A DNA stretch of 43,533 nucleotides from Chloroflexota bacterium. Lineage in GTDB: Bacteria > Chloroflexota > Anaerolineae > Anaerolineales > UBA4823. The position numbers were made by a program, and so were the translations under genes. Below the pieces are notes generated by a model, which was not told where the DNA came from, made no database searches, and saw nothing but the letters and a program-made list of their open reading frames with translations. Where the stretch lies: NCBI GenBank assembly GCA_023395675.1, contig JAEWYL010000205.1, forward strand, positions 1 through 43,533, written 5' to 3'. Of the stretch, positions 6,606 through 21,141 are shown piece by piece. How positions within the stretch are numbered: the first letter of the stretch is position 1; every line of letters starts with the position of its first letter.

Positions 6606-6643
6606 AAAAAGGGGCGGAGCGCCTCGGAAGAAGCGCTCCGCCC
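6606..6643 (-). terminator. intrinsic (rho-independent) terminator closing the hox/fdh gene string
   Basis: Minus-strand RNA reads GGGCGGAGCGC-uucuuccgag-GCGCUCCGCCC-C-UUUUU. That is an 11-bp perfect GC-rich stem, a 10-nt loop and a U5 tract, starting 15 nt after the fdhA stop (6659-6661). Confidence 0.85.
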
Positions 6644-6658
6644 GGTTCATGGTGAAAC

Positions 6659-9460
6659 TCAGACCCGTTCCACTTTGACGGCGCAGATCTTGAACTCCGG
6701 TATCTTCGCCACCGGATCGAGCGCCGCCAGCGTCAGCTCGTTGGCGGAGGCCTCGGGGAAGTGGAAGTTGGCAAACACCATCCCCGGCGGGACCCGGTCC
6801 GTCACCCAGGCCTCGGCCTCGATGACGCCCCGGCGGGACTGGACTTTGACCCGCGCCCCCTTGCTGGAGCCGTTGACCAGGCCCAGCCGCACGGCGTCGT
6901 CGGGGTTCACTTCTACCAGCGCGCGGTCGTAGACTTCGACCAGGCCGCTTGCCCGGCGGGTCATCTCGCCGCCGTGCCAGTGGTAGAGCACCCGGCCCGT
7001 ATTCAGCACCCAGGGGTACTCGTCGTCCGGCATTTCGGCCGGCGGGATATGGTCGATGGGCATGAACTTGCCCGGGCCGCGAGTGAACTGCCCGATATGC
7101 AGCACCGGCGTGCCCGGGTGATCGGCGCTTTTTACCGGCCACTGCAGGCGCTCGCCGCGCTCCAGGCGGGCGTGGCTGACCCCGGCGTAGCTGGGCGTCA
7201 GGGCGGCCACTTCGTCCATCACCGCCGAGATATCGGCGTATTCCCAGCCGCTGAACGGCGCGGGGTCCGCTTTCCGGCCGCCGCCCGCCAGCATGCGCTG
7301 CGCCAGTTCGGCGGTGATGCGCCAGTCTGCGCGGGCCTGCCCGCGCGGCTCGATGGCCTTGCGCACCATCTGGATGCGCCGCTCGGTATTGGTGAAGGTG
7401 CCGCTCTTCTCGGCGAAAGTGACGCCCGGCAGCAGCACGTCGGCGTAATCCGCGGTCTCCGTCGGGAAGATCTCCTGCAGGATGATGAACTCGCAGCGGT
7501 CCAGGCAGTGGCGGATATGCGCCGTATCGGGATCGCTCATCACCGGGTTTTCGCCCAGGATATACATCGCTTTGACCTTGCCCTCGCCGGCGGCGGGGAC
7601 CATCTCCGTCACCGTCAGGCCCACGCTTCCGGGCAGGGGCGTACCCCAGGCCGCTTCGAACTTCTTGCGGTTGTCCTCCACGGTGACGTTCTGGTAAGCC
7701 GGGTAAACGTTGGGCAGGCCGCCCATATCGCAGGCGCCCTGGACGTTGTTCTGGCCGCGCAGCGGGTTGACCCCGCCGCCCGGCACGCCCATGTTGCCCA
7801 GCAGCATCTGCAGGTTGGCGAGGGACATGACGTTGCGCACCCCGACGATATGCTGGGTGATGCCCATCGCCCAGATCACCGCCATGGGGCTGTTCAGCGC
7901 CAGGATCTCGGCGGCTTCGTACAGTTTCTCGACCGGGATGCGGGTGATCTCGGAGGTCTTTTCCGGCGTGTACTCCGCCACCACGGCCCGGAACTCGTCG
8001 AACCCTTCCGTCCGGTTGGCGATGAACTCGCGGTCCTCCCAGCCCTTCTCCAGGATGATATGCATCAGCCCGTTCAGCAGGGCGACGTCGGTGCCCGGGC
8101 GCTGGCGCAGGTGCAGGGTGGCGAATTCGGTCAGGTCAATGCGCCGGGGATCGGCGACGACCAGTTTTGCGCCGCGCCGGGCCACAGCCTGGCGCAGCAT
8201 GGCCCCGAAGACGGGGTGCTGTTCGGTGGTATTGGAACCGATGACGAAGAAAGAGGCTGCATTCGCCGCCACATCGTCCATCGAGTTGGACATTGCGCCC
8301 GAGCCAAAGGAAGTGGCCAGACCGGCCACGGTGCTGGAGTGTCAGAGACGGGCGCAGTGATCTATGTTGTTCGTCCCGACCACCTGGCGGGCGAACTTGT
8401 TCATCAGGTAGTTTTCTTCGTTGGTGCACTTGGCCGAGGTGAGCACGCCCACGCTGTCGGGTCCGAAGGTATCCCGGGCCGCGCTCAGCTTCCGCGCCGT
8501 CAGGTCGAGGGCCGTGTCCCAATCCACGGGCACCCACTCGCTGCCGGTGCGCGGCATTCCGGCGGGACGCTGCCCATCTCCCTCGAGCAGGTAGCGCCGT
8601 ACCAGGGGCCGGGTGAGGCGTTCGGGGTGGTGAATGAAGTCGTAGCCGTAGCGGCCCTTCACGCACATGTGCAGCCCGTTGACCGGGGCCTCGGGATTGG
8701 AGGTGACCCGGATCACATGCCCGCCCTCGTCATCGTCCTTCACGTTCAGGTCGAAGCTGCAGCCGACCCCGCAGTAGGTGCAGGTCGTGGTGACCAGGCG
8801 GTCGGCCTCGCCCAGGTGGGCGGACATCTTGTTGTCCAGCGCTCCGGTCGGGCAGTAGGCCACGCAGGCGCCGCAGGACTCGCAGCGCGCGTCGAGCATC
8901 AACTGGCCCGCGCCCGGGACGGGATGGGCGTTGAAGCCGCGTTCCGCCATGTTCCAGACATAGCGGCCCTGGATCTCGGCGCAGGCCCGCACGCAGCGGG
9001 TGCACTGGATGCACTTGTTCAGGTCCACCCGGATGAACGGGTTCGGGTCGCTGTCCACCGGGTAGCGCGGCGCTTTCGACATCACCTTGGGCACATCCAC
9101 CCCGTAGTGCTTCACCCAGTGCATAAACTGGGTGTCGGGCAGGCGGACTTCGCCCTCACTTTCCAGCGAGGCGTCGAAGTAGTTGGATAGCAGCAGCTCT
9201 AGAATGAAGCGGCGAGACTGCACCAGGGCAGGGGTTTCCGTCCTCACCACCATCCCTTCCGTGACTTCCAGCGTGCAGGCCGTCTGCGGCAGGCGTGCGC
9301 CCTGCACCTCGACCACGCACATCCGGCAGCCGCCGAACGGCGACAGGTCTTTGTGGTCGCACAGGGTGGGAATGGTGATGCCTGCACTTTCTGCTGCGTG
9401 CAGGATGGTTGTGCCCTTGGGAATCTGGATCTTTTGATCGTTTATTGTCAGAGTCAGCAT
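6659..9460 (-). CDS. fdhA: selenocysteine-containing formate dehydrogenase catalytic subunit, FdhA/FdsA type with N-terminal Fe-S extension (933 codons incl. UGA-Sec)
   Basis: Track ORFs 8342..9460 and 6659..8329 are in the same frame and separated only by TGA 8342-8344. Read-through gives [30 protein letters not shown], the Sec/Cys-His active-site segment of FdhF/FdhA. The N-terminus carries a 2Fe-2S motif (CDHKDLSPFGGCRMC) and 4Fe-4S motifs (CIQCTRCVRAC, CESCGACVAYCP, CTYCGVGC). The C-terminus is MopB-like (VFANFHFPEASANELT...KICAVKVE). Confidence 0.9.
8313..8329 (-). promoter_or_regulatory. bacterial SECIS-like hairpin downstream of the UGA
   Basis: Minus-strand RNA reads GUGGCC-GGUCU-GGCCAC, a 6-bp perfect stem. 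The GGU of the loop begins 22 nt from the U of UGA. As I recall, E. coli fdhF has the same spacing and the same GGUCU loop (both encode ..VAGL..). Confidence 0.7.
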
Positions 9461-9591
9461 AAGTTATTCTTTCGACCAGGCACAAATCTTTAGTAGGATA
9501 TGATCAAACAGAGATTTCCACTGTTTTATCTTAAGGAGGAATTGCATTGACTGCCAGTGACGATTGTCACCATTCCTTGAGAAACATCACC
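9461..9591 (-). promoter_or_regulatory. AT-rich 131-nt spacer between hoxW and fdhA (possible internal promoter or processing region)
   Basis: It is visibly lower in GC than the flanking sequence (aaatctttagtaggatatgatcaaacagagatttccactgttttatc) and is the largest gap in the gene string. It contains a small GTGAC-aatc-GTCAC hairpin. I could not identify a convincing -35/-10 pair. Confidence 0.3.
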
Positions 9592-10086
9592 TCAGGTTTT
9601 CACCTCCAGCCAATCCCAGATGCGGTCCGCCGCCTGCGCCGCCAGCTCGGCCGTGCGGGGGGACAGCGCGCGCGAGAAGCCGAAGCTGTAACCCCGTACC
9701 GAGACCAGCAGCGCCTCCGGCTCCTGGCCGTACAGCGCGCCGGTAAAGGACAGGAGCGATTCAGGGGTCAGGTGATGGGTGAAAGGCGAGGTCTGAAACT
9801 CCTGGCGCACCGGGACGGCGCGCACTTCCTCTGGCACTGCCCCCGTATGCGCGTCAATAAAGCAGATGCGCTCGAACTCTGCCGCGGTCTCCGCCAGCTC
9901 AGGGGTAAGCTGGAGCACAAAGAGCAGCTCGATCTCTTCCCCCTGCAGGTCGAAGGCCTCCTCGACGGCGTCCGGGGCCGGCCGGCCGAGACGGCGGGCG
10001 ATCTCCGCCAGGACGTGATACGCCACGCCGTCATCTTCCCGGTCGATATTCCCGTAGCCCAGGAGCAGAGTCTTCTTATCGCTCAA
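9592..10086 (-). CDS. hoxW: [NiFe] hydrogenase maturation endopeptidase (HoxW/HycI family), 164 aa
   Basis: It has the motif LLLGYGNIDREDDGVAYHV (GxGNxxxxDDGxG) and a C-terminal DAH (FIDAHTG). The track ORF starts at 10137 inside hoxH. I prefer TTG 10084-10086, which is preceded by AGGGAG placed between the hoxH stop (TAA 10097-10099) and the TTG. Confidence 0.8.
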   Translation of the reverse strand: MSDKKTLLLGYGNIDREDDGVAYHVLAEIARRLGRPAPDAVEEAFDLQGEEIELLFVLQLTPELAETAAEFERICFIDAHTGAVPEEVRAVPVRQEFQTSPFTHHLTPESLLSFTGALYGQEPEALLVSVRGYSFGFSRALSPRTAELAAQAADRIWDWLEVKT

Positions 10087-10096
10087 CCGGCTCCCT

Positions 10097-11524
10097 TTAT
10101 CCTTGCGTGAGGGTCTTGACCAGGCCGCCGTCCGCATCCAGGACTTCGACCTCGATCGGCATCTGGCCTACTGCATGGGTGGAGCAGGACAGGCAGGGGT
10201 CGTAAGCCCGCACCGCAGCCTCGACCCGGTTCAGCAGCCCTTCGCGGATCTCCGGGCCGGTGATATAGGTCTTGGCGACGCTGTCCACCGCCTGGCTCAT
10301 GGCCCAGTTGTTGTGCCCGGTGGCCACGATCAGGTTCACGTGGGTGAGCGCGCCGTCCTCGTTCGCCTTGTAATGGTGGAAGAGCGTGCCGCGCGGCGCC
10401 TCCAGAATGCCCACGCCCTCTCCCCGGAAGTCCTTGCGGGTGTTGAGGATGTCGGTGCTGAGGGCATCCGGGTCCTCCAGGATGACGCGCGCCCGTTCTA
10501 CCGCAAAGAGCGTTTCGATCAGGCGGGCGTAGTGGTAGTAGAGCGTGTTCTCCACCGGTCCGCCGGGGTTGAGGGCTTTGAAGCGCAGCAGTTCGGCCTG
10601 CGCCAGCGGGGTGCCAATCTTTTCCGCCGCGTTCAGGCGTCCCAGCGGGCCCACGCGGTAGACGCCGTCGGGCCAGCCCATCTTCTTGTAGTAAGGGAAC
10701 TTGAGGTAAGACCAGCTCTCCACGTGCTCGGCGATGTAATCCAGGTAATCCCCTCCGGCGAATTTCTCGAGCTGCACGCCGTCGGCGCCGATCAGGCGCA
10801 CGGCGCCTTCGTAGAGCTCCAATCCGTTCTCGGGCGTGACCAGGCTCATATAGCCGGTGGGGAAGACCGCAAACTTGCGGATATCCTCCATATTCCGTTC
10901 GGCCCAATCCCGGGCGATGCCCAGGCCGGTCTGGATGGCTTCGATGGCCGCATCCACGCCCGCCAGGATCGTCTCGCGCTCGCCGGGCTGCAGGGCCTTG
11001 TTCACCCCGCCGGGGACGGCGAAGTTCGGGTGGATCCTGCGCCCGCCCAGAATACGGATGATCTCCTGTCCAAACTTGCGCAGGTTCACCGCTTTGAGCG
11101 CCAGCTCCGGGTTTGCACCGATCAGGCCGATCACGTTGCGGGAGGCAGGGTCGGCGTCGAAGCCGAGCAGCAGGTCGGGGCCGGCCAGCTCGAAAAAGTG
11201 CATGCCGTGGCTCTGGATCACCTGGCCCATGTGCATCAGCTCGCGCAGCAGGCTGGCCGGGCGGGGCGGGGGCGAGCCGGCCAGGTCGTCGGCGGCTTTG
11301 GCTGCCGCCAGGTGATGGCTGACCGGGCAGATACCGCAGATGCGGGGGGTGATGGATGGCATCTCGAAGTACATCCTGCCCTCGCAGAACTTCTCGAAGC
11401 CGCGGAATTCATTGATGTGCAGATAAGCCCGGTCCACCGTCCCACCCTCGTTCATGTGGATGGTGACTTTGGCGTGTCCCTCGATCCTGGTGACCGGCTC
11501 GATCGTAATTTTTTGTGTCGTCAT
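10097..11524 (-). CDS. hoxH: [NiFe] hydrogenase large subunit, cytosolic group 3 (HoxH-like, most consistent with 3d), 475 aa
   Basis: It has the N-terminal Ni-binding motif [10 protein letters not shown] and the C-terminal motif [10 protein letters not shown] 25-residue tail ([11 protein letters not shown]...) follows, which is the expected substrate for the adjacent protease. GGAGAG lies upstream of the ATG. The subgroup is inferred from the HoxEFUY neighbours, not from phylogeny. Confidence 0.9.
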
Positions 11525-11612
11525 TCTTTCTCTCCAATGGTTCGCAGGTGTCTTTCTGCTTGCGATACGGGTAAAACCTGGCAGTCTTCAGCAGCCTGCG
11601 ACCTTCAACCGG

Positions 11613-12155
11613 TTAGTGCCAGTGAAGCTTATCGTCCTTGATCTCGGGGATGCGCCCCTGGGCCAGTTCGCTGAGGACGTAGTAGATCACGTCCGGGTCG
11701 GGCGGGCAGCCGGGCACGAACACGTCCACGGGAACCACCTCGTGAATGGCGCGGGTGTCCTGCATCACCGCCAGCTCGGGGTCGTCCGGGATCTTGCCTC
11801 CGGCATCGGTGCTTTCGGTCTCCACGTAAGCCCGGCGCAGGGCGGCCTCGATCCCGCAGAAGTTGCGCATGGCAGGCACGCCGCCGAACACGGCGCAGTC
11901 GCCCAGGGCGACCAGGATCTTGCAGCGGCTGCGCATCTTGTGCGCCACCTCTTCGTTGGCCGAGTTGTTAATCCCGCCCTCGAGGATGCCCACCTCCACA
12001 CCGCTCTCATCCGGCTCTTTCAGATCGGTCACCGGGGTGGCGCGGATATCGGCCAGTTGGGCAATTTCTACGATACGCTCGTCAATATCCAGCAGCGACA
12101 TGTGGCAGCCGGCGCAGCCCGCCATCCAATCGCTAGAAATTTTCGGTTTCGTCAT
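11613..12155 (-). CDS. hoxY: [NiFe] hydrogenase small subunit, short HoxY type (180 aa)
   Basis: Only the proximal-cluster cysteines are present (AGCAGCHMS, GDCAVFGG, VPGCPP), and the ~180 aa length is typical of HoxY. I chose ATG 12153-12155 (MTKPKISS) because AGGAG lies 8 nt upstream. Confidence 0.85.
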   Translation of the reverse strand: MTKPKISSDWMAGCAGCHMSLLDIDERIVEIAQLADIRATPVTDLKEPDESGVEVGILEGGINNSANEEVAHKMRSRCKILVALGDCAVFGGVPAMRNFCGIEAALRRAYVETESTDAGGKIPDDPELAVMQDTRAIHEVVPVDVFVPGCPPDPDVIYYVLSELAQGRIPEIKDDKLHWH

Positions 12156-12237
12156 TTTTGTACTCCTGATCAACAATTACCGGTACCCGGCCTGCCCCGG
12201 GGAGTTTGAACTCTATCCGGAGCGGGCAAAGCTGCAT

Positions 12238-14094
12238 TTATGCGGCCGCCTTTTCGACCAGTTCAGCCTTCCAGTCGCCGCTGAGCGGAGAGCCAAGGCA
12301 GGCAGCCAGGGCCGATAGGGCCTCTTCGTTCGAGCGCACCCAGGCGGCGGGCGCGACGCCCGCGCGGGCGGCCTGCAGCCGGCCTTCCAGGTTCAGGTAG
12401 TGCCCGGCCTGTTCGGCCCAGGTGCCTACCGGCAGGACCACGTCCGCCTGCTCGGTGAGCGGCGAGGCGTAGCTGGCCTGCACGGCGAGGAAAGGCACGC
12501 CGGAGAGGCTCTCGACGAGCTGCAGGCTGGGGACGTCGTCTCCCAGGGCCAGGAAAGCGGCCGCGCAGCCTTCAGGGTTGAATGCGCCCTGCAGGCCGTA
12601 GCGGCGGGCCGCCAGGCTGTTGGCGCCGCCCGCGGTCTGGACCACCGGCGCCCCGTTTGCCAGGGCGACCAGGGCTTCCAGGGCTCCGGGCTCCGCGATG
12701 ACCAGCGCGCCGGCCACGAAGACCGGTTTCCGGGCCTGGGCGATCAGGCGCGCGGCCTGGGCCAGGCTGGAGGAGGCGCCATTACCGCCCACGCTCTGCA
12801 CTGCAGTCGCCAGGCTGCGCAGGGTCTCGCCCAGCCCGCCTTCCGCCGTGCGAATGTTCAGCGAGGCGTGTTCCGCCAGGCCGTTCTCGTCGCTGTCAAC
12901 CAGCACCAGGTTGGTCCCCTGCGGCAGGCTGCGTTTGATAAAGAAACCGGCGACCTGGTGGCCGGCAGCCAGGTCGGCCCCAACCACAACCACACAGTCC
13001 GCGTCTTTCAGGGCCTTCAGGCTCTGCGCGGCGGGCAGATCCGCCATGCGGGCGGCCTCGATGCCGGCAGCGGCCCTGCCGCCGAGCTTCTCCACAAACA
13101 GCTCCTTGAAAGAGGCCAGGGCCTCGGCGGTCAGACGGGTGGAGGCCAGGGCGGAGATCCGGCCGGGAGAGCCTGCCAGCGGGGCCAGCTTACCGGCGAT
13201 GAAAGCGGTCGCTTCCTCCCAGGTGGCCGGCTCCAGGCTGCCGTTCTTGCGCACCAGCGGCGTGGTCAGGCGGGGGCGGTCGTCCTCCACAGGCAGGTAG
13301 TGGCCTGCTTCGCACAGCACGCCGCCGTTCACCGGGTGCTCCCAGTCGCCGTCGACGCGCACCAGGCGGTTGTCCCGCACCACCAGCTCAATCCCGCAGC
13401 CGACCGAACAGCCGGCGCAGACCGAGGGGATGCGCTCGAACTCGGCCTCTTTGCCCAGGTAAGCGTCTACCCGGTCAATCAAGGCCCCGGTCGGGCAGAC
13501 CTGCACGCAGGTCCCGCAGCGAATACAGCTGCTCTCACCGACCGGCAGCCCGTAATCAGCCACCACCATGGTAGAGGCGCCCCGGTTTTCGAGGCTCAGG
13601 GTGTGGCTGCCCACCAGCTCGTCACAGGCGCGCACGCAGCGGCGGCACAGGATGCAGCGGTTGTGATCCAGTACAAAATAAGGGTGCGAAGCATCCACCG
13701 GATAGGGCTTCCAGGCCGGCTGAATGGGCCAGTGGGTCATGCCCTCTCCGTAGGCGGCGTTCTGCAGCTCGCAGTCGCCGTTCGTCTTCTGGCAGTACAT
13801 GCAGAAGTGGTTGCGTTCGCTGAAAAGCAAGGTCAGGACGAACTCCCGGGCTTTCTTCACCGCAGGGCTGTCGGTGTGCACCACCATCCCGTTGGTTACA
13901 GGCAGCGTGCAGGAGGTCTGCAGGGTGCGCATACCCTCCACCTCGACCACACACAGGCGGCAGCCGCCGTAGGGCTTCAGCGAGGGGTGATCGCACAGGG
14001 TGGGGATGTCCAAACCCGCCAGCCTGGCTGCTTCCAGCACAGTGGACCCGGCCTGCACCTCAATAGACTGACCATTAATTGTTACTGCTACCAT
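12238..14094 (-). CDS. hoxU: HoxU-position Fe-S subunit, NuoG/FdhA-like with degenerate C-terminal MopB-like domain (618 aa)
   Basis: It has a 2Fe-2S motif (CDHPSLKPYGGCRLC), a His/Cys cluster region (NHFCMYCQKTNGDCELQ), 4Fe-4S motifs (CILCRRCVRAC, CIRCGTCVQVCP) and a MopB-type cluster (CAGCSVGC...LCEAG). About 330 aa follow with no Sec/Cys-His catalytic segment. I chose ATG 14092-14094 (MVAVTINGQ) with AGGAGA upstream. Confidence 0.8.
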   Translation of the reverse strand: MVAVTINGQSIEVQAGSTVLEAARLAGLDIPTLCDHPSLKPYGGCRLCVVEVEGMRTLQTSCTLPVTNGMVVHTDSPAVKKAREFVLTLLFSERNHFCMYCQKTNGDCELQNAAYGEGMTHWPIQPAWKPYPVDASHPYFVLDHNRCILCRRCVRACDELVGSHTLSLENRGASTMVVADYGLPVGESSCIRCGTCVQVCPTGALIDRVDAYLGKEAEFERIPSVCAGCSVGCGIELVVRDNRLVRVDGDWEHPVNGGVLCEAGHYLPVEDDRPRLTTPLVRKNGSLEPATWEEATAFIAGKLAPLAGSPGRISALASTRLTAEALASFKELFVEKLGGRAAAGIEAARMADLPAAQSLKALKDADCVVVVGADLAAGHQVAGFFIKRSLPQGTNLVLVDSDENGLAEHASLNIRTAEGGLGETLRSLATAVQSVGGNGASSSLAQAARLIAQARKPVFVAGALVIAEPGALEALVALANGAPVVQTAGGANSLAARRYGLQGAFNPEGCAAAFLALGDDVPSLQLVESLSGVPFLAVQASYASPLTEQADVVLPVGTWAEQAGHYLNLEGRLQAARAGVAPAAWVRSNEEALSALAACLGSPLSGDWKAELVEKAAA

Positions 14095-14117
14095 TCTAAA
14101 AATCTCCTGATTCAGTT

Positions 14118-15758
14118 CTAAGCAAGCGCCGGGACCTGATCCATCGGGCAGACGCCGGTGGGGCATACGCCCAGACGGATATGGGCCTCAACTTCAGCGC
14201 GGAAGTGTTTCAAAATATCGCGGATCGCCACCGAGGCAGTCTGCCCCAGCCCGCAGTTGGAAAGTTGTTCCATCGCCACGCCCAGGCGCTGGATCTCGTC
14301 CAGCTCCTCCAGGCTCCCGGCGCCGGCTGCCAGCCGCTCCAGGATCTCGTAGGTGCGCTGTGTGCCGATGCGGCAGGGGGTGCATTTTCCGCAGCTTTCG
14401 AAGCGGAAGAACTGCATCAGCACCCGGGCCAGATCCACCACGCAGGTACGGTCGTCGCAGACCAGCAGCGCGCCGGACCCCAGGGATACTCCGGCCTTGC
14501 GGAACGATTCGAAGTCCATGGGCGTGTCCACCAGGCTCGCCGGTACGATCGAGCCGCTGGACCCGCCGGTCTGGAACAGTTTGAGCGGGCGGCCGTCCTT
14601 CATGCCCCTGGCGTAAATGGCGATCACCTCTCGCAGGGTAATGCCCATGGGCACTTCGATCACCCCGGTCATGTTCACGTTGCCCAGGATGGTGTAGACC
14701 TTGGTCCCCGGGCTGCGAGGGGTGCCGAAGCTCCTGTACCAGGCGGCCCCATGCCTCAAGATCGGCGGGACATTGGCCAGGGTCTCCACATTGTTCACCA
14801 GGGTCGGCTTGCCCCACAGGCCCTTCGTGGGCGGGTAGGGCGGGCGGGAGCGCGGCTCGCCGCGCTTGCCCTCGATGGATTCGATCAGGGCGGTCTCCTC
14901 GCCGCAGATATAGGCCCCGGCTCCGGCATGGACGTGCAGGTCGAAGCTGAAATCCGTGTTGAACAGGCCCTTGCCCAGCAGTCCGTGGGCGCGCGCCTGT
15001 TCAATGGCCTTCTCCAGGCGCTGGTATGCCAGGCCGTACTCGCCGCGGATATAAATATAGCCTTCGCTGGCGCCCACCGCATAAGCGGCGATGGTCATGG
15101 CCTCCACGATGCTGTGAGGGTCGCCCTCCAGGATCATGCGGTCTTTAAAGGTGCCCGGCTCGCTCTCGTCGGCGTTGCAGATCACGTACTTGGGATCGCC
15201 CTCGGCCGAGGCGACAAACGTCCACTTGCGCGCCAGAGGGAAGCCCGCCCCGCCGCGGCCCTGCAGCCCGGAGGCGTCCAGCTCCGCGATCACCTGCTGG
15301 GGGGTCATCTCCGTCAGCACCTTCGCCAGGGCTTCGTAGCCCTCGTTCAGGATGTATTCCTCGATGCTCTCCGGGTCGATTTTCCCTGCCCGCTGCAGCA
15401 CAATGCGCTGCTCGGCGGGCATGGCGCCTTTCCGGGCTCGCAGCCAGGCGATGGAGCCGGAGAGTTCGCGCACGGGGGCGAGCATGCTCTCGACCACGCG
15501 GCCTTTGTACAGGTGTTCCTCGACCAGAAGGTGAGCGTCCTCCGGACGTACGGGCCCGTACACCACCGCCTCGGGGTAGACCACCACCATCGGCAGGGCG
15601 TCGTGCCGGCCCAGGTCTCCGGCCATCGCCAGAGAGATTTCATCGGACAGGCCGTAGGCCTCGATCTCCTGCTGCAGCGCTTCCTGCAGGCGGTAAGCCC
15701 CACGCTGCATGCTCTGGGGGTCGCTGGATATCAGAACCATGGATCGGATTGTCTTCAT
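14118..15758 (-). CDS. hoxF: NAD(H)-binding flavoprotein subunit, NuoF/HoxF type (546 aa)
   Basis: It has an FMN/NADH site GRGGAGFPLARKW and an N3 cluster motif ESCGKCTPCRIGT. The N-terminal thioredoxin-like domain has no cysteines, and there is no C-terminal 2x[4Fe-4S] domain. I chose ATG 15756-15758 (MKTIRSMV), 11 nt after the hoxE stop, with AAGGA upstream. Confidence 0.85.
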   Translation of the reverse strand: MKTIRSMVLISSDPQSMQRGAYRLQEALQQEIEAYGLSDEISLAMAGDLGRHDALPMVVVYPEAVVYGPVRPEDAHLLVEEHLYKGRVVESMLAPVRELSGSIAWLRARKGAMPAEQRIVLQRAGKIDPESIEEYILNEGYEALAKVLTEMTPQQVIAELDASGLQGRGGAGFPLARKWTFVASAEGDPKYVICNADESEPGTFKDRMILEGDPHSIVEAMTIAAYAVGASEGYIYIRGEYGLAYQRLEKAIEQARAHGLLGKGLFNTDFSFDLHVHAGAGAYICGEETALIESIEGKRGEPRSRPPYPPTKGLWGKPTLVNNVETLANVPPILRHGAAWYRSFGTPRSPGTKVYTILGNVNMTGVIEVPMGITLREVIAIYARGMKDGRPLKLFQTGGSSGSIVPASLVDTPMDFESFRKAGVSLGSGALLVCDDRTCVVDLARVLMQFFRFESCGKCTPCRIGTQRTYEILERLAAGAGSLEELDEIQRLGVAMEQLSNCGLGQTASVAIRDILKHFRAEVEAHIRLGVCPTGVCPMDQVPALA

Positions 15759-15769
15759 CGCGCCTGTCC

Positions 15770-16261
15770 TTATTCGTAGCGGGCCAGAATGCCGGGCACC
15801 TGTTCGGGCCGGACATTGCCGTATACGTCCTCGTCGATCAGCATCACCGGGCCTACCCCGCAGATCCCCAGGCAGCTGGTGGTGATCAGGGACCATTTCT
15901 TGTCGGGAGTGGTTTCGCCGGGTTCGAGCTGCAGGGCCTCTTTCACCGCTCCGAACAGCTCGCGTCCGCCCATTACGTGGCAGGGGGCACTCTCGCAGAA
16001 GCGCACCACGTGTTTTCCAAGCGGCTTCGTGGACAGCATCTCGTAAAAACTGGCTACCGCGAAGAGCTGCCCTTCCGAAACGCGCACGCTGGCGTTCCGC
16101 AGCTGTTTGCGCACTTCCACAAAAGCTTCCGGAGGGATATAGCCTAACGCGCGGTTCACCTCGCTGAGGATCGGGATGATGGCATCTCCATGGGCGCCGT
16201 GGAGCCTGATGGCCTCCTGGACGACTCCGGTGACATCTTTCTGGTTTATTTCGACCGACAT
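15770..16261 (-). CDS. hoxE: NuoE/HoxE-type [2Fe-2S] subunit (163 aa)
   Basis: Cluster motifs are RFCESAPCHVMG (Cx4C) and TSCLGICGVGP (Cx3C). I chose ATG 16259-16261 (MSVEINQ), preceded by AGGAGG. Confidence 0.85.
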   Translation of the reverse strand: MSVEINQKDVTGVVQEAIRLHGAHGDAIIPILSEVNRALGYIPPEAFVEVRKQLRNASVRVSEGQLFAVASFYEMLSTKPLGKHVVRFCESAPCHVMGGRELFGAVKEALQLEPGETTPDKKWSLITTSCLGICGVGPVMLIDEDVYGNVRPEQVPGILARYE

Positions 16262-16331
16262 TGGTCCTCCTGGAACGGGTTCAGACGATCTTTTCGCCGG
16301 TTCTGGATCAATTAATCCGTCTCTGCTGCCC

Positions 16332-16373
16332 GGTTCCGGCAGGGCCGTGCTGGCCCTGACCGGATCCGGAACC
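16332..16373 (-). other. two-tier RNA hairpin in the 123-nt spacer between the NuoF-like gene and hoxE
   Basis: Minus-strand RNA reads GGUUCCGG-auccgguc-AGGGCC-agcac-GGCCCU-g-CCGGAACC. That gives 8 + 6 perfect base pairs with one internal loop and no U tract afterwards. Confidence 0.5.
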
Positions 16374-16384
16374 ATCTCGGCGTC

Positions 16385-18169
16385 TTAAGAAAGCACCTGG
16401 ATGGAGTTGAAGTTGCAGACCTGCATGCAGATACCGCAGCGGATGCAGGTTTCGACATCAATCTCATGCGGCTGGCGCCGCTCGCCGTGGATGGCCTCCA
16501 CCGGGCAGTTGCGGGCGCAGACCATACAACCGGTGCAGATATCCTTCTGGATCTCGTAGCGGATCAGCGGCTTGCAGACCTTTGCCGGGCAGCGCTTCTC
16601 GTTGATATGCGCCTCATACTCATCCCGGAAGAACTTCAAGGTGCTGATAACGGGGTTCGGCGCGCCCTGGCCCAGGCCGCACAGGCTGGTGGTGGTGATC
16701 TGCGAGCACAGGTCATCGAGCAGGTCCAGGTCCGAAGGCTGGCCCTCGCCCGAGCAGATGCGCTCCAGGGTCTCCAGCAGGCGGCGGGTGCCCACCCGGC
16801 AGGGGGTGCATTTACCGCAGGATTCGTCCTGGGTGAAATCCATGAAGTAGCGGGCGATATCCACCATGCAGGTATCTTCGTCCATCACGACGAAGCCGCC
16901 CGAGCCCATCATCGCCCCGGCTTTTACCAGGGCTTCGTAGTCCACCGGAAGGTCCAGGTAATCTGCCGGAAGGCAGCCGCCCATCGGGCCGCCGATCTGG
17001 ACGGCTTTGATGGCTTTTCCGTTCGGGATGCCGCCGCCGACGTCGTAAACCACCTCGCGCAGCGTCATGCCCAACGGGACCTCAACCAGGCCGGTATTGT
17101 TCACGTCGCCGGCGATGGCGAAGGTCTTGGTGCCCTTCGAGCGCTCGGTCCCCATGCTGGCGAACCATTCCGGCCCGTTCAGGATAATCTGGGGGATATT
17201 GGCGTAGGTCTCGACGTTGTTGTTGTTGGTCGGTTTGTGCCACACACCCTTGACCGAGGGGTAGGGCGGGCGGGGGTGAGGCTCGCCGCGCTTGCCCTCG
17301 ATGGAGGCGATCAGCGCCGTCTCTTCACCGCAGACGAAAGCGCCGGCGCCTTTGCGCACTTCCATGTCGAAGGAGAAGCCGCTGCCCAGAATATCCTCGC
17401 CCAGCAGGCCCAGGGAACGGGCCTGTTCGATGGCGATGTTCAGGGTGCGCACGGCGATCGGGTACTCGGCCCGGCAGTAGATATAGCCGAAGCGCGCCCC
17501 GATGGCGTATGCGGCGATCACCATGCCCTCGATCACCGAATGGGGATCGCCTTCCAGGACGCGGCGGTTCATGAACGCGCCCGGGTCGCCCTCATCGGCG
17601 TTGCAGGTCAGGTATTTGGGGAAGTCAGGCACATTGCGCGTCAGCTCCCATTTTTTGGCGGCCGGGAACCCGGCTCCACCGCGGCCGCGCAGCCCGGACG
17701 CCATGACCGTCTCGATCACCTGCTCCGGAGTCATCTCCGTCAGCACTCTGGCCAGGGCGGCGTAGCCGTCTTCGGCAATATAATCCTCGATGTTCTCGGG
17801 ATCAATATTGCCGCAGTTGCGCAGCACCACGCGCACCTCTTTGGGTTTCGGCGGGCCGAGCTCTTCGTCCTTTGAAACCGCCAGCGGCAGCCGGTATTTC
17901 TCCACCACCCGGCCTTTGAGGAAATGCTCCTCGACCAGGAAAGGGATATCGTCTTCGGTCAGGCCGGCATAGTGGATTCCCTCGGGATATACCATCATCT
18001 CCGGGCCGGAGGCGCAGCCGCCGATGCGGGAAGTCTCCAGCACCTGCACCTCTTCAATCAGCCCCTGAGCGACCAGTTCGTCTTGCAGGGCGTCCATCAC
18101 CTGATGGGCGCCGTGAGCCAGGCACTCGGGGTCTGCACACACGAGTACGTGAGAGCGGTAATAGTGCAT
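16385..18169 (-). CDS. NuoF-like flavoprotein of the HydB/HndC (bifurcating-type) architecture (594 aa)
   Basis: The N-terminal thioredoxin-like domain carries Cys (HVLVCADPEC...GGCASGP). It has FMN/NADH site GRGGAGFPAAKKW and cluster motif ESCGKCTPCRVGT. The C-terminal ferredoxin domain has two CxxCxxCxxxC(P) motifs (CTGCMVCARNCP, CIRCGICMQVCN). Confidence 0.88.
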   Translation of the reverse strand: MHYYRSHVLVCADPECLAHGAHQVMDALQDELVAQGLIEEVQVLETSRIGGCASGPEMMVYPEGIHYAGLTEDDIPFLVEEHFLKGRVVEKYRLPLAVSKDEELGPPKPKEVRVVLRNCGNIDPENIEDYIAEDGYAALARVLTEMTPEQVIETVMASGLRGRGGAGFPAAKKWELTRNVPDFPKYLTCNADEGDPGAFMNRRVLEGDPHSVIEGMVIAAYAIGARFGYIYCRAEYPIAVRTLNIAIEQARSLGLLGEDILGSGFSFDMEVRKGAGAFVCGEETALIASIEGKRGEPHPRPPYPSVKGVWHKPTNNNNVETYANIPQIILNGPEWFASMGTERSKGTKTFAIAGDVNNTGLVEVPLGMTLREVVYDVGGGIPNGKAIKAVQIGGPMGGCLPADYLDLPVDYEALVKAGAMMGSGGFVVMDEDTCMVDIARYFMDFTQDESCGKCTPCRVGTRRLLETLERICSGEGQPSDLDLLDDLCSQITTTSLCGLGQGAPNPVISTLKFFRDEYEAHINEKRCPAKVCKPLIRYEIQKDICTGCMVCARNCPVEAIHGERRQPHEIDVETCIRCGICMQVCNFNSIQVLS

Positions 18170-18171
18170 TC

Positions 18172-18540
18172 TTATGCCTCGATCGTGAATTCCTTGACCG
18201 GCTGGCCTCCGAGGACGTGTTCCTTCAAGATCCGTATCGCCACCTCAGGGGTTACCTTGCCGTAGGTTACTTTGGGATTTTCGCCAACCGTCACCTGTAC
18301 GATCGGTTCGCGTTCGCACAGCCCGATGCAGCCGGTTTGGGTCACTACAATGCCGCTCAGGTTGTCAGTTTCAATCTGGTTGAGAAGCGCCTTCATGGTG
18401 TCACGCGCGCCTGCGGCGATCCCGCAGGTGCCCATGGCGACGACCACCTGGGCCTGCCCTTCGGCAGTCTTTACTCTGCGCTTCTCCAGCGCTTCTTCTC
18501 TCAGGCGCTTCAGGTCTTCGATGGATTTGATCGCGGTCAT
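18172..18540 (-). CDS. thioredoxin-like [2Fe-2S] ferredoxin, HndB-like (122 aa)
   Basis: The segments VVVAMGTCGIAAGA and TQTGCIGLCEREPIV are typical of HndB-type small subunits. Its stop lies 2 nt from the NuoF-like start. Confidence 0.75.
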   Translation of the reverse strand: MTAIKSIEDLKRLREEALEKRRVKTAEGQAQVVVAMGTCGIAAGARDTMKALLNQIETDNLSGIVVTQTGCIGLCEREPIVQVTVGENPKVTYGKVTPEVAIRILKEHVLGGQPVKEFTIEA

Positions 18541-18609
18541 CGGTATTCTCCTTCGTATCGTTCAAATCGCCAAATTCTGGCTCTGCCGGGCTGGTGCCGC
18601 CTTGCTGGC

Positions 18610-19230
18610 TCACCGGCCGGAGCTTGTTTCTGTCTCAAGTGCTGAAAAAATCCCGGCGCGGGCTGCCACAGCCTCCCGCACCTGCGCTTCACCGGCTTCC
18701 AGGCTCTCGCGCAGGTAGCGCAGCACCTCCGGCTCGGTGAGGGGGAGGTCGCCCAGGGCCTCTTTCAACTCCCGGTCGTCAAAGCGGAAGTCCACCGGGG
18801 AAAGCTCTCCCGGGAGGTCCGCCCCGTATTCGAACACCCAATGCACCTGCGGGTGAGCGATCAGCAGGGTCAGCCAGGTGCTCGCCAGGTCGCCAAGCGG
18901 CATGCGGTCAATATGGCTGTGCTGGAACCACACCCTCAGCGTTGTTCCCTGGCCCGGGGCGGTCTCGAGCTCCAGACCGCCGCAGCAGGCCTCGGCGGCC
19001 GCTTTGAGCAGCGGGATGCCCAGGCCCACCTTGCGGGTGGTGCGGCTGGTGGTGAAAGGATCGCTCACGCAGGCCGCCAGGGCGGCGTCCATGCCGCGCC
19101 CATCGTCCCGGACAGAGGCGCTGAGCCGGTCGCCGGCCAGGTCTTCGCGCACAGAGACCGTCACGCTGCCGGCTTCCGCGGCGGTCGAGTTCTCTGCAAT
19201 ATCCAGGAGGTGGAGGGCGATCTCTCTCAT
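18610..19230 (-). CDS. stand-alone GHKL (histidine-kinase-like) ATPase domain protein (206 aa)
   Basis: It has an N box (HLLDIAENS), a G1 box (RDDGRGMD) and a G2-like box (GLGIPLL). There is no HisKA/DHp or sensor domain. The ~90 aa C-terminal part is unassigned. It sits between the NuoE-like and HndB-like genes, as in many HydABC operons. Confidence 0.7.
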   Translation of the reverse strand: MREIALHLLDIAENSTAAEAGSVTVSVREDLAGDRLSASVRDDGRGMDAALAACVSDPFTTSRTTRKVGLGIPLLKAAAEACCGGLELETAPGQGTTLRVWFQHSHIDRMPLGDLASTWLTLLIAHPQVHWVFEYGADLPGELSPVDFRFDDRELKEALGDLPLTEPEVLRYLRESLEAGEAQVREAVAARAGIFSALETETSSGR

Positions 19231-19244
19231 CGGCGTTCCGGGTT

Positions 19245-19751
19245 CTAGTCCTGCACCTTCTTCAAGAGCTGCGGGACCTTATTCGGGCGCACGCGCCCGG
19301 TCACTTCTTCGTCAACCACGATCACCGGCGCCTGGGAACAGGCCCCCACGCAGCGGCAGATCTCCAGGGTCACGTTACCGTCCGCGGTGGTCTGGCCGAT
19401 GTCAATCCCGAGGGCCTGCTTGGCCTTCTCGATCAGCTGCGGCATCCCGCCCACGTAGCAGGCCGTACCCATGCAAAACTTGATGGTGTGCTTGCCTCGC
19501 GGCTGGGTGGTGAAGAACGAATAAAAAGTGACCACCCCGTGGATGGAACCGACGGGCACATTCAGCTTCTGGGCAACGTAAGCCTGCATCGGCTCGGTAA
19601 TAAAGCCAATCTGGCTCTGCAGTTCGTTCAGAACGACCATCGTGGCTCCGGGGATGGTGCCGTTCTCCTCCAGGATCTGGTCGATCACGGCCCGTTTTTC
19701 CGGTACCACCAGCGGATCGTTGGCTGGAATGTTCTCTAACAGTTTCGTCAT
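19245..19751 (-). CDS. NuoE-like [2Fe-2S] subunit, HydC/HndA type (168 aa)
   Basis: Cluster motifs are KFCMGTACYVGG (Cx4C) and RCVGACSQAP (Cx3C). I chose ATG 19749-19751 (MTKLLENI) with AGGAG 10-14 nt upstream. Confidence 0.85.
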   Translation of the reverse strand: MTKLLENIPANDPLVVPEKRAVIDQILEENGTIPGATMVVLNELQSQIGFITEPMQAYVAQKLNVPVGSIHGVVTFYSFFTTQPRGKHTIKFCMGTACYVGGMPQLIEKAKQALGIDIGQTTADGNVTLEICRCVGACSQAPVIVVDEEVTGRVRPNKVPQLLKKVQD

Positions 19752-19909: not shown

Positions 19910-20653
19910 TTAGAGGATGCGGAGCGAGCGCCCCGCTTCTCCACGCAGGGCCAGGCGGAGCTCGTCCACGCAGGGAGCCTGCAGCTCCAGGCGGTTGGCT
20001 CCCAGAATTTCTTCCAGGCGGTGGGCGTCGCCCCCCTGGAGCAGCGGGTAACCCTCGATTTGCGGGAACTTACGCCCGGCCTCAGCGGGGCTGTGGTGGC
20101 GAGAGATCTCCAGCCCCTCGGCTTCCAGGTCGGGGGGGACCAGGCCCAGGTTGGCGATCAGCCCGAAGGCTTTGCGGTCTACGTGGGCCGGGACGGCCAG
20201 ACCGCCCAGCGCGCGCACCCCTGCGAAGACCTCTTCGATGCTCAGGGCCGCGGAGGTGAGCAGCAGGCGCTCTTCTCGCCGCAGGAAGTCGCCCGTCTCG
20301 TCCACCACGAACTGCTCCCCGAAGAAATCAATATTGTTCTCGATCTGCGGCAGGGCCCGGTCCACCTGCGCCTGCCAGGCCTCCAGCTGTTCGATCCGGT
20401 CGAACAGGCAGAGCACGTGCACTTCCTCCTGGGTCTGGAGCTCCATCCCCGGCAGGACGGTCAGGGCGCTGCCCTGCGCCGCCCGCTGCACAGCCCTGAC
20501 GTTGGCGCTGGCGTTGTGATCCGTTACCGCGATCAGGTGGATGCCGCGCTCCAGCACCTCCTGCACGATCAGGGGAGGGATCATCTCGACCTCGGCGCAG
20601 GGAGAGAGGACGGTGTGGATATGAAGTTCAGCCCGGTAAACCTGCATCACCAT
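19910..20653 (-). CDS. PHP-domain metal-dependent phosphoesterase (247 aa)
   Basis: The N-terminal AELHIHTVLSPCA (HxH), internal AVTDHN and PAHVDR, and C-terminal GGDAH form the PHP histidine/aspartate motif series. Confidence 0.75.
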   Translation of the reverse strand: MVMQVYRAELHIHTVLSPCAEVEMIPPLIVQEVLERGIHLIAVTDHNASANVRAVQRAAQGSALTVLPGMELQTQEEVHVLCLFDRIEQLEAWQAQVDRALPQIENNIDFFGEQFVVDETGDFLRREERLLLTSAALSIEEVFAGVRALGGLAVPAHVDRKAFGLIANLGLVPPDLEAEGLEISRHHSPAEAGRKFPQIEGYPLLQGGDAHRLEEILGANRLELQAPCVDELRLALRGEAGRSLRIL

Positions 20654-20692
20654 CGTGCTCCACTCGCTTCCACCCTGCCTGTCCCGGCTCTC

Positions 20693-21043: not shown

Positions 21044-21054
21044 GGTTAACTCCT

Positions 21055-21141
21055 AAGTACCTATCCGAAAAATTCTATGTTGTGATGGGGGGCGCAGCCC
21101 CCCGTCACAACCACAAATCATATATTTTTAGGATAGGTTCT
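21055..21141. repeat. nested-palindrome intergenic repeat, copy B (87 nt)
   Basis: Sequence: aagtACCTATCCgaaaaattctaTGTTGTGATGGGGGGCgcaGCCCCCCGTCACAACcacaaatcatatatttttaGGATAGGTtct. The outer inverted arms flank a 15-bp inner stem (one G-U pair). T5/A5 tracts lie on both sides. Its last nucleotides touch the stop codon at 21140-21142. Confidence 0.8.

Follow-up and report, generated by a model that had tools for sequence, protein, structure and literature searches.

The window analysed here is the whole 43,533-nucleotide stretch of contig JAEWYL010000205.1 (assembly GCA_023395675.1), which comes from a Chloroflexota bacterium of the class Anaerolineae. The subject of this study is a string of minus-strand genes, reading from 19751 to 6659, in which a soluble [NiFe] hydrogenase, a selenocysteine (Sec)-containing formate dehydrogenase (FDH) and two flavoprotein modules are encoded together. 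The reading preferred here, with a probability of roughly 0.5, is that of a modular soluble H2/formate system in fermentative Anaerolineae, in which the hydrogenase core HydA-HydS-HydL (HydASL) and the FDH alpha subunit FdhA would use the flavoprotein modules of the operon in parallel. That is to say, the parts appear to behave as a kit, with HydC1-HisK-HydD-HydB1 and/or HydC2-HydB2 upstream and HydA-S-L-P and/or FdhA downstream. A modular kit with shared flavoproteins fits the data better than a fixed fusion.

The string is supported alike by the list of open reading frames (ORFs), by domain scans with Pfam and NCBIfam and by the genes called on the source contig. It consists of 11 co-directional genes, separated in the 5′ to 3′ direction by 14, 69, 2, 123, 11, 23, 82, 88, 10 and 131 nt according to their coordinates, and the gene calls place zero genes on the opposite strand. 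Long plus-strand ORFs were rejected as genes and regarded as antisense shadows in DNA whose GC content is about 65% over the window; the one that was tested was blank in Pfam. All members of the string lie on the minus strand. The first of them, hydC1 (19245–19751; Pfam 2Fe-2S_thioredx, E = 4e-45), encodes a NuoE/HydC-like [2Fe-2S] subunit and opens flavin module 1, followed by a hisK-like GHKL ATPase gene (18610–19230; Pfam HATPase_c, E = 3e-14) and by hydD (18172–18540; Pfam 2Fe-2S_thioredx, E = 5.6e-6) for an HndB-like thioredoxin-like ferredoxin, both of which occupy the positions of hisK and hydD in the operon of Acetomicrobium mobile. Then comes hydB1 (16385–18169), encoding a Bfu-type NuoF-like flavoprotein with a C-terminal 2×[4Fe-4S] domain, which matches chain 7T2R_B over its full length. 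The second module is composed of hydC2 (15770–16261; Pfam 2Fe-2S_thioredx, E = 6e-39; best match in the Protein Data Bank (PDB) 7T2R_C), for another NuoE/HydC-like subunit, and hydB2 (14118–15758), for a truncated HydB paralogue whose best PDB match, 7T2R_B, covers residues 5–538 only. The hydrogenase genes follow: hydA (12238–14094; Pfam and 7T2R_A) for an Fe-S subunit of 618 aa that resembles NuoG/FdhA and has a degenerate molybdopterin-like domain, hydS (11613–12155; Pfam Oxidored_q6, best PDB 7T2R_E) for a short NiFe small subunit, hydL (10097–11524; best PDB 7T2R_D) for the NiFe large subunit, and hydP (9592–10086; NCBIfam TIGR00072 with 51.7 bits against a cut-off of 47.45) for a hydrogenase maturation endopeptidase. 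The last gene is fdhA (6659–9460; Pfam and NCBIfam Fdh-alpha), for the alpha subunit of a Sec-FDH, and 3′ of it lies an intrinsic terminator (6612–6643, minus strand), in which a stem of 14 pairs, 11 of them G-C, is followed by a U-run; its RNA fold has an energy of −38.1 kcal/mol (z = −5.3), and it is the sole strong terminator found for 6659–19751.

Most of what an initial annotation of this DNA had described is upheld by these data: 11 minus-strand genes lying 2–131 nt apart with no opposite-strand gene, the only textbook terminator of 6659–19751 directly behind fdhA (placed here at 6643–6612), and a cytosolic group-3 [NiFe] hydrogenase, a Sec-FdhA of 933 codons with an N-terminal Fe-S extension and two NuoE/NuoF modules in one cluster. 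It had also noted fdhD upstream in the same orientation, and this gene is indeed found at 23328–22543 (22543–23328, minus strand; Pfam FdhD-NarQ, E = 2e-71), where it encodes the FDH sulfurtransferase/maturation protein. The extent of the string needs to be qualified: the 11 genes stand, but the co-directional run does not stop at them and goes on upstream to fdhD through genes for a PHP-like protein, a DRTGG-domain protein, a CBS-HATPase protein and a second DRTGG-domain protein. Likewise, the reported absence of hyp, sel and molybdopterin genes agrees with the Pfam and domain scans of the window genes, in which no hyp, sel or moa gene was found. Nor is there a tRNA-Sec, as ARAGORN finds no tRNA anywhere in the window, and an Rfam scan of the whole window at gathering thresholds returned no RNA element.

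Judged by similarity, HydA-HydS-HydL and the protease HydP form a homologue of the electron-bifurcating NiFe-HydABCSL of A. mobile, which was characterised in 2022 (PDB 7T2R/7T30; Feng et al. 2022, PMC8880783). All five hydrogenase subunit types find their best solved-structure match in 7T2R, with HydC1 near-best, the scores being 569 bits for chain D, 174.5 for E, 310 for A, 841 for B and 123/122 for C. HydL ranks 7T2R_D above HoxH of 5XF9 (5XF9_D, 431 bits) and MvhA (417 bits); it carries the motifs RIEGH, RICGIC and DPCLSCSTH and a 25-residue C-terminal extension, as read from the sequence, while its Pfam assignment is PF27537, HoxH, and its best NCBIfam model, VhuA, stays below the cut-off. 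For HydS, 7T2R_E is to be compared with 138.8 bits for MvhG and 132.5 bits for HoxY of 5XF9. The 618-aa HydA combines a [2Fe-2S] domain, NADH-G_4Fe-4S_3, 2×[4Fe-4S], Molybdop_Fe4S4 and a molybdopterin-oxidoreductase-like domain, so that Pfam hits and Cys/His motifs account for the cluster sites A1–A5; its N-terminal part scores 310 bits against 7T2R_A versus 147 against 5XF9_B, and its C-terminal part also has 7T2R_A as best match (E = 1e-8). HydA is 28% identical to the FdhA of the window over about 720 FdhA residues, the Sec/His segment being deleted and the C-terminal domain that binds molybdopterin guanine dinucleotide (MGD) being gone. In effect, HydA would be a dead FdhA that uses a His-ligated A3 cluster to wire in the NiFe module. 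The five-subunit composition of NiFe-HydABCSL is thus present (HydA without an H-cluster, HydB, HydC, a short HydS and a group-3 HydL), and the order hydC-hisK-hydD-hydB...hydA-hydS-hydL-hydP is that of A. mobile, except that hydC2-hydB2 is inserted between hydB and hydA. In A. mobile, the hisK and hydD products are not part of the holoenzyme (PMC9304861, PMC8880783).

The initial annotation had called these genes hoxE (hydC2), hoxF (hydB2), hoxU (hydA), hoxY (hydS), hoxH (hydL) and hoxW (hydP). A reading that keeps these names would have a classical Hox enzyme (group 3d, HoxEFUYH) standing beside an unrelated, possibly ferredoxin-dependent FdhA, with the first NuoE-HK-HndB-NuoF set as a leftover of an [FeFe] HydABC. 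The large subunit is in fact annotated as 'NAD-reducing hydrogenase large subunit' (Pfam PF27537, HoxH), metabolic reconstructions of Anaerolineae name HoxEFUHY (bioRxiv 10.1101/2021.07.06.451242), HydB2 carries the NuoF/HoxF-type NADH-site motif NADESEPGTFKDR, and three FdhA relatives (L113, L116 and L131, in the numbering of related loci used below) have no NuoEF nearby. The general plan is shared too, since Hox also joins a NuoE/F/G-like diaphorase to a short small subunit and a large subunit and works with NAD(H)/ferredoxin, and the Hox of Synechocystis was recently reported to be confurcating (bioRxiv 10.64898/2026.06.25.734504). However, HydL, HydS, HydA and both copies of B and C score higher against the A. 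mobile chains than against 5XF9, and the names did not hold for this reason. HoxU in particular is a protein of about 240 aa that has a [2Fe-2S] and three [4Fe-4S] clusters and is without an A4/A5 branch or a molybdopterin-like domain, whereas the supposed hoxU encodes 618 aa with A4/A5 and a molybdopterin-oxidoreductase-like domain, features absent from Hox (PMC8880783); moreover, HydB2 lacks the N-terminal cluster (F2) that Hox uses. Four species show the exact A. mobile order with no 'HoxEF' at all, and the first flavin set is present in 49/62 loci with its ligands intact, so it is no relic. A classical Hox is therefore very unlikely; no other explanation fits the similarity scores and the architecture of HydA so poorly.

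The two flavoprotein modules are unlike each other. HydB1 matches 7T2R_B over its full length with 841 bits and 60% identity, and it possesses C438, C476, H525, C531 and C536 (the ligands of cluster B2), the AFM and GGPMG motifs and the C-terminal 2×[4Fe-4S] ferredoxin-like domain; in no fewer than 54 of the 56 orthologues the B2 ligands are kept, as is AFM in 54/54. In the literature, the B2 ligands (C438, C476 or Thr, H525, C531, C536) together with the B3/B4 domain serve as the criteria for BfuB (PMC9304861), the AFM and GGPSG motifs of the flavin site mark bifurcating enzymes (bioRxiv 10.64898/2026.06.25.734504), and B2 ligands, AFM and the ferredoxin-like domain have been tied to bifurcation and ferredoxin binding (Schut et al., PMC9304861; Feng et al., PMC8880783). 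The N-terminal [2Fe-2S] cluster B5 is said to be conserved throughout the Bfu enzymes (PMC9304861). In HydB1, one of the four Cys at this site is missing, and the site is degenerate across the Anaerolineae clade: of the 47 HydB1 orthologues scored, 46 have Arg in place of the third Cys, 21 have Ser in place of the first and 15 have Pro in place of the fourth. This predicted degeneracy contradicts the published invariance of B5.

HydB2 shares 49% of its residues with 7T2R_B (571 bits) and 50% with HydB1. It stops eight residues past the equivalent of C536 and thus has no B3/B4 ferredoxin domain; its N-terminal domain contains zero Cys, AFM is replaced by TFK, and GGP(S)G by GGSSG. The equivalents of C438, H525, C531 and C536 are kept in 71/71 orthologues, and the C476 position is Ala in the window and Ser, Ala or Thr in orthologues. 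HydB2 therefore looks like a Bfu-derived flavoprotein of non-bifurcating type, which probably retains the B2 cluster. As for the partner subunits, HydC1 finds its best PDB matches in HydC of A. woodii, T. kivui and A. mobile, and HydC1 and HydC2 are 32% identical. It is possible that the tandem modules provide alternative confurcating and NADH-only assemblies, differ in pyridine-nucleotide specificity, or form one two-flavin complex.

FdhA, the other catalytic module, is encoded by 933 codons with a single in-frame TGA at 8344–8342, in the motif HCARL-U-HSS. The TGA is found at the same codon in 89 of 101 FdhA relatives, and the other 12 have Cys. A hairpin GUGGCC-GGUCU-GGCCAC, common to the TGA-bearing relatives, starts 12 nt after the TGA, so that the Sec codon and the selenocysteine insertion sequence (SECIS) hairpin (8329–8313) together span 8313–8344 of the minus strand. 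Compensatory changes in its stem (GUCGCC/GGCGAC, GUGGUC/GACCAC, GUCACC/GGUGAC) are found among the relatives, and the hairpin is decayed in the 12 Cys-encoding ones. It is this covariation and this decay, not the folding energy, whose z-score for the SECIS region alone is not significant, that provide strong evidence for a working SECIS. In all eight species in which fdhA lies between hydB2 and hydA (L023, L025, L028, L030, L032, L035, L038 and L042), the residue is Cys (TGC/TGT) and the SECIS is decayed, which resembles a clean, naturally occurring exchange of Sec for Cys linked to a single gene order.

In its architecture, FdhA shows the Pfam domains Fer2_4, Fer4, Molybdop_Fe4S4, Molybdopterin and Molydop_binding, the two halves score 626 and 150 bits with the NCBIfam model Fdh-alpha, and the catalytic motifs U-H and PLRGQNNVQG can be read from the sequence. 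FdhA is hence predicted to be a catalytically intact Sec-FDH. Its NuoG-like N-terminal extension carries [2Fe-2S] and 4Fe-4S clusters and is predicted to be a docking and wiring module of the HydA/FdsA type. No His-ligated A3 cluster was recognised in FdhA, as the segment between residues 62 and 149 is free of Cys and a match to PF10588 is missing. The path A1-A2-A4-A5-MGD is kept, which is the path described for FDHs (PMC8880783).

The gene order was compared over 160 related loci, numbered with the prefix L, of which 80 are centred on HydL and 80 on FdhA. For HydL, one genome per species was scanned, relatives were found in 369 of 185,579 species-representative genomes, and 80 loci of Anaerolineae/Chloroflexota at 74–81% identity were taken, onto which all proteins of the window were mapped. 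The dominant order is CBS-HATPase, DRTGG, PHP-like, hydC1, hisK, hydD, hydB1, hydC2, hydB2, hydA, hydS, hydL, hydP, with estimated spacings that are short throughout the operon. When the flavin modules were counted at the 62 loci with at least 7.5 kb of upstream sequence, both modules were near hydA in 45 (73%), only hydC2-hydB2, preceded by hydD, in 8, only hydC1...hydB1 in the A. mobile order in 4 (L006, L017, L046 and L060), and neither in 5. The position of fdhA was counted within 10 kb around the hydrogenase genes at 62 informative species-level loci: fdhA lies between hydB2 and hydA in 8/62 (Bellilinea and Thermanaerothrix, all with Cys), after hydP as in the window in 7/62, and in a separate NuoE-NuoF-fdhA cassette beside hydP in 4/62, and it is absent from the remaining 43/62. 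One of the loci of the window type, L005, has 2.8 kb of other sequence between hydP and fdhA. The linkage on which the initial annotation had built its proposal is thus no accident of a single genome, with fdhA in or beside the hydrogenase operon in 19/62 species and in three arrangements, but it does not extend to the 43 species without fdhA within 10 kb. From these arrangements, of which there are three or more, fdhA would seem to have entered the hydrogenase operon on at least three separate occasions, and several clades are involved.

Two observations belong beside these counts. In Ornatilinea apprima (L072), another of the seven loci with fdhA after hydP, an FNT/FocA-like gene and fdhD stand between hydP and fdhA; the channel gene was called by eye from the translated spacer and, if correct, it links formate export or import to the operon. 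In addition, hydA-hydS-hydL-hydP stands alone beside unrelated genes in L083/L084, L054, L007, L015, L026 and L029 (mreB and prfA in L083). L083/L084, examined separately, belong to an assembly assigned to Anaerolinea thermophila and have only hydA-S-L-P at the locus. Where the four genes stand alone in this way, the flavin modules must be elsewhere in the genome or absent.

For FdhA, metagenomes were scanned with the C-terminal part as query, giving 80 loci at 71–79% identity, 44 of which are informative in having at least 1.5 kb of upstream sequence. A NuoF-like gene directly precedes fdhA in 34/44. In 26/44, this gene is less than 62% identical to either HydB copy, giving an fdsGBA-like arrangement that often includes fdhD. 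In 8/44, it is a HydB2 orthologue, with no hydrogenase in up to 10 kb downstream. Sequence features of the FdsB-like partners are used here only qualitatively, since the set of lower-identity NuoF-like hits analysed for them also took in HydB1 orthologues. Elsewhere, fdhA comes directly after hydP as in the window (2/44), has a NuoF-like gene about 3 kb upstream (5/44) or has none near it (3/44, the above-mentioned L113, L116 and L131). L106 and L156 have the regulators and hydC1-hisK-hydD-hydB1-hydC2-hydB2 followed by fdhA only, with no hydrogenase; fdhD heads L106, as it does the string of the window, and also heads many NuoEF-fdhA cassettes. The order in L158 is fdhD-hydD-hydC2-hydB2-fdhA. 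A neighbour-joining tree of HydB2 does not separate FDH-only from hydrogenase-only contexts but mixes them, with L156 beside Ca. Villigracilis L056 and L094 beside the clade of the window.

The FdhA of the window has no NuoEF pair of its own, four hydrogenase genes lying between fdhA and the NuoEF genes. It is proposed that FdhA uses the flavin modules on the hydrogenase side, because FdhA types of this kind are almost always encoded with a NuoEF pair, because the merged operons hold one flavin-module set for two catalytic modules, and because fdhA was recruited repeatedly at different positions. According to this proposal, either catalytic module would dock onto the flavoprotein modules of the operon, and electrons from NADH and reduced ferredoxin would be released as H2, by confurcation as in A. 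mobile, or as formate, with a possible NADH-only mode through HydB2C2. Formate and H2 would be interconverted via a shared NAD(H)/ferredoxin pool and not by an obligatory single complex. The pairing of the modules, the direction of catalysis and bifurcation itself are all points that we infer.

The arrangement might also be explained by fixed pairing, in which B1C1 and HydASL form a bifurcating hydrogenase, B2C2 and FdhA form an FdsGBA-like NAD-dependent FDH, and the two lie together for co-regulation only. NuoE-, NuoF- and NuoG-like genes number exactly two each in the window, so that NuoEF pairs and NuoG-like subunits stand at 2:2. Moreover, hydC2-hydB2-fdhA is contiguous in the Bellilinea/Thermanaerothrix clade, like fdsGBA; hydB2 is always immediately before fdhA in the FDH-only clusters and is present in 16/16 fdhA-bearing loci with enough upstream sequence; and HydB2, being without a ferredoxin domain, resembles the non-bifurcating FdsB. 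Against such a division of labour, 24 loci have both flavin modules and HydASL with no fdhA within 10 kb, and the eight loci with HydC2-HydB2 only ahead of HydASL mean that C2B2 is not FDH-specific. Conversely, L106 and L156 carry the C1B1 set ahead of FdhA without a hydrogenase, so that C1B1 is not hydrogenase-specific either. HydB2 also keeps the Bfu-specific His and three Cys of B2, which sets it apart from the short FdsB-like proteins that accompany most FdhA relatives. Fixed pairing is accordingly considered unlikely.

A further explanation goes in the opposite direction and assumes one bifunctional complex, a [NiFe] counterpart of FdhFeFe-Bfu, in which FdhA, HydASL and both flavin modules together would interconvert formate and H2 + CO2 directly and would also couple both to NAD(H) and ferredoxin. 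Of the two possibilities that the initial annotation had raised, a shared NAD(H)/ferredoxin pool or one complex, this would be the stronger. FdhFeFe-Bfu itself is a precedent for bifunctionality, and fdhA is sandwiched between hydB2 and hydA in the eight species mentioned above, a 'sandwiched gene' argument having been used for Codh-Bfu and Mbh-Bfu (Schut et al., PMC9304861). No terminator was found between hydC1 and the end of fdhA, including the hydP-fdhA spacer, and this spacer is only 2 nt long in L011 and L074, among lengths of 2, 40 or 44 nt in relatives. In the window, on the other hand, the spacer (9461–9591, minus strand) is long, at 131 nt, and AT-rich (39% GC), and it contains the palindrome GTGACAATCGTCAC at 9557–9570 of the minus strand, whose longer form, TGACAATyGwCACTGG, is seen again ahead of fdhA in L005 (at about 15604) and L097 (at about 3181). 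Hydrogenase-only clusters (43/62 loci) and FDH-only clusters are both common. As far as electron transfer is concerned, FdhA has a complete docking domain of its own (A1, A2, A4 and A5) without an A3 with which to reach the NiFe small subunit, and the A4/A5 branch leads nowhere in the enzyme of A. mobile, whose two protomers are electronically isolated, with their cofactors more than 40 Å apart (PMC8880783); there is consequently no apparent electron path between the two active sites except via a flavin module. A single bifunctional complex is quite unlikely in view of these features. We think it similarly improbable that the string encodes an undescribed [NiFe] member of the Bfu family, in which HydASL and Sec-FdhA would plug into two unlike flavoprotein modules, a bifurcating-type and a truncated one, as one machine or as interchangeable assemblies that would interconvert formate, H2, NAD(H) and ferredoxin and could switch between confurcating and NADH-only operation; it would then be, within the same low estimate, in effect a soluble [NiFe] formate hydrogenlyase or H2-dependent CO2 reductase.

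The reported products of cultured relatives were set against their loci (L023, L072, L066 and L054). Bellilinea caldifistulae makes H2 and formate, and Ornatilinea apprima makes them in traces (PMC5481317, Table 2); both have fdhA in or beside the operon. For Longilinea arvoryzae and Anaerolinea thermolimosa, H2 is reported and formate is not (PMC5481317, Table 2), and neither has a local fdhA.

Several points weigh against the modular system proposed here and should be considered together. First of all, the B5 site of HydB1 is degenerate clade-wide, so that bifurcation is not assured. Secondly, both flavin modules stand in tandem ahead of a single NuoG-like subunit in 73% of the loci, and a kit of exchangeable parts does not account for this. 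Thirdly, Thermanaerothrix daxensis has fdhA inside the operon, and formate is not among its reported products; the correlation of products with fdhA covers five isolates, with pyruvate formate-lyase as a confounder, and is therefore suggestive. Fourthly, the AT-rich hydP-fdhA spacer with its recurring palindrome may permit independent transcription of fdhA. Finally, the proposal is built on homology, ligand content and gene order, and to call the modules 'shared' is a statement about local gene content only.

Among characterised systems, the closest is the NiFe-HydABCSL of A. mobile, with which the string has in common the five subunit types, the operon order apart from the inserted hydC2-hydB2, a HydA with A1–A5 and a non-catalytic C-terminal domain, a HydS of about 180 aa and, in HydB1, the B2 ligands, AFM and the ferredoxin-like C-terminal domain. 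It differs in its second, truncated HydC/HydB pair, the Sec-FdhA at the 3′ end, the degenerate B5 of HydB1 and its host, which belongs to the Chloroflexota (Anaerolineae) and not to Synergistetes or Halorhabdus. FdhFeFe-Bfu (HytA-E/FdhA) of Clostridium autoethanogenum, a bifunctional enzyme (Wang et al. 2013), likewise unites, as far as it is summarised in PMC9304861, a hydrogenase, a Sec/pterin FDH and a NuoEF-type core in one cluster, and its physiological logic is the same, with H2 or formate made from NAD(P)H and reduced ferredoxin and with formate/H2 interconversion. Compared with that summary, the hydrogenase of the window is of the [NiFe] type (HydSL on A3), FdhA has its own NuoG-like docking domain and the flavin modules are two in number; no H-cluster domain of the [FeFe] HytA type was found in the string with Pfam or NCBIfam.

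The FdhA architecture, in which an N-terminal [2Fe-2S], 2×[4Fe-4S] and Molybdop_Fe4S4 precede the MGD domains, is that of FdsGBA and of Type 1 Fdh-Bfu (6TGA of Rhodobacter capsulatus, 6VW7 of Cupriavidus necator; Carboxydothermus hydrogenoformans type, PMC9304861), and the FdhA relatives resemble FdsGBA in standing almost always directly after a NuoE-NuoF pair, often with fdhD nearby. Unlike FdsGBA, the window places four hydrogenase genes between FdhA and NuoEF and has Sec in place of Cys. HydB2, the candidate partner, scores 356–375 bits against FdsB versus 571 bits against HydB (49–50% identity) and keeps the Bfu-type His/Cys ligands. The H2-dependent CO2 reductase (HDCR) of Acetobacterium woodii and the formate hydrogenlyase of E. 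coli also pair an FDH functionally with a hydrogenase. However, HDCR combines an [FeFe] hydrogenase with HycB-type polyferredoxins and lacks a flavoprotein, and the E. coli enzyme is a membrane-bound group-4 [NiFe] enzyme with HycC/HycD; no HycB-type polyferredoxin and no HycC/HycD domain was detected in any gene of the string by the Pfam and NCBIfam scans.

Each of the following has been described before: the hydrogenase type, Sec-FDHs linked to NAD/ferredoxin, and a bifunctional FDH-hydrogenase of the [FeFe] kind. NiFe-Bfu has been listed only for Synergistetes and Halorhabdus, with no Fdh+NiFe functionality (Schut et al., PMC9304861), and one supplementary file of Schut et al. 2022 contains no Anaerolineae names. 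The initial annotation had named no characterised example of such a cluster, and a literature search, with subscription journals largely outside it, agrees in having found no published description of an Anaerolineae HydABCSL-type cluster, of the tandem flavin modules or of the recurrent integration of fdhA; for a NiFe-FDH-NuoEF cluster in Anaerolineae/Chloroflexota, the names found were only the generic 'HoxEFUHY' or 'NiFe hydrogenase'.

In anaerobic digesters, in sediments and in wetlands, Anaerolineae are core fermenters, which rely for their growth on the transfer of electrons to methanogens as H2 or formate. If the modular picture is true, the main hydrogenase of the Anaerolineae, usually annotated as 'Hox', would be a relative of the bifurcating NiFe-HydABCSL, and this class would extend well past Synergistetes and Halorhabdus. 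The same flavoprotein modules would then also drive the reduction of CO2 to formate, which would help to explain the choice between H2 and formate as interspecies carrier. The occurrence of an intact Bfu-type HydB beside a truncated paralogue with a His/Cys [2Fe-2S] site is a natural experiment on the cofactors needed for bifurcation, and a soluble NiFe set that interconverts H2/CO2 and formate would bear on H2 storage and CO2 reduction. As the merged operon is present in the cultured Bellilinea caldifistulae, Thermanaerothrix daxensis and Ornatilinea apprima, the predictions are directly testable.

Upstream of the enzyme genes, between fdhD and hydC1, lies a block of putative regulators on the minus strand. 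It begins with a small unannotated DRTGG-domain ORF (22125–22604; Pfam DRTGG, E = 1.5e-8), whose start is uncertain and is probably an ATG near 22497, and continues with a CBS-CBS-HATPase protein (21140–22135; Pfam CBS, E = 2e-30, and HATPase_c, E = 5e-9), a second DRTGG-domain protein (20693–21043; Pfam DRTGG, E = 5e-6) and a PHP-like protein (19910–20584), whose weak Pfam PHP match (E = 3.4e-4) is under the curated cut-off. The CBS-HATPase gene heads most of the related clusters, and the position of the PHP-like gene is also kept in relatives. The block 19910–22604 recurs in most of L003–L082, together with the in-operon GHKL ATPase, and accompanies hydrogenase-only and FDH-only clusters alike; presumably, DRTGG, CBS-HATPase, PHP-like and GHKL proteins make up a unit for sensing or regulation. 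Between the CBS-HATPase and DRTGG genes, a stable hairpin (21059–21138, minus strand) flanked by an A-run and a U-run folds with −42.1 kcal/mol (z = −6.2; 0/200 shuffles fold as well). It is possibly a bidirectional terminator or an attenuator ahead of the enzyme genes, and it may be the true 5′ boundary of the enzyme operon, parting fdhD and CBS-HATPase from the enzymes. Another hairpin, at 22219–22190, was rejected as a terminator behind fdhD, as it sits within the coding sequence of the DRTGG-domain ORF.

Within the string, the spacer between hydB1 and hydC2 (16262–16384, minus strand) contains a strong hairpin without a U-tract (RNA fold −50.2 kcal/mol, z = −2.9), and neither a terminator nor a promoter consensus was found in it. 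In relatives, this spacer measures about 14–233 nt (median 56) and differs in sequence. The hairpin was dropped as a terminator or regulatory element, being without a U-tract and not conserved in relatives; in this host, the GC-rich structure could adjust how strongly the two flavin modules are expressed relative to each other. A sigma-70 scan gave one site, inside hydB1, which is fewer than in shuffled sequences, and none in either spacer, with a consensus that may not suit Chloroflexota. A sigma-54 promoter upstream of fdhA (TGGCAG...TGCA) was rejected by eye, since the GG-to-GC spacing is wrong. Outside the string, an ORF of 783 aa on the plus strand (26827–29178) has no Pfam hit at E ≤ 1e-5 and overlaps a 695-aa minus-strand ORF. 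As for the palindrome GTGACAATCGTCAC, it may be an operator or promoter element for fdhA, and looser copies of it are found 24 nt before hydC1 and near an inverted Fds cassette in L043.

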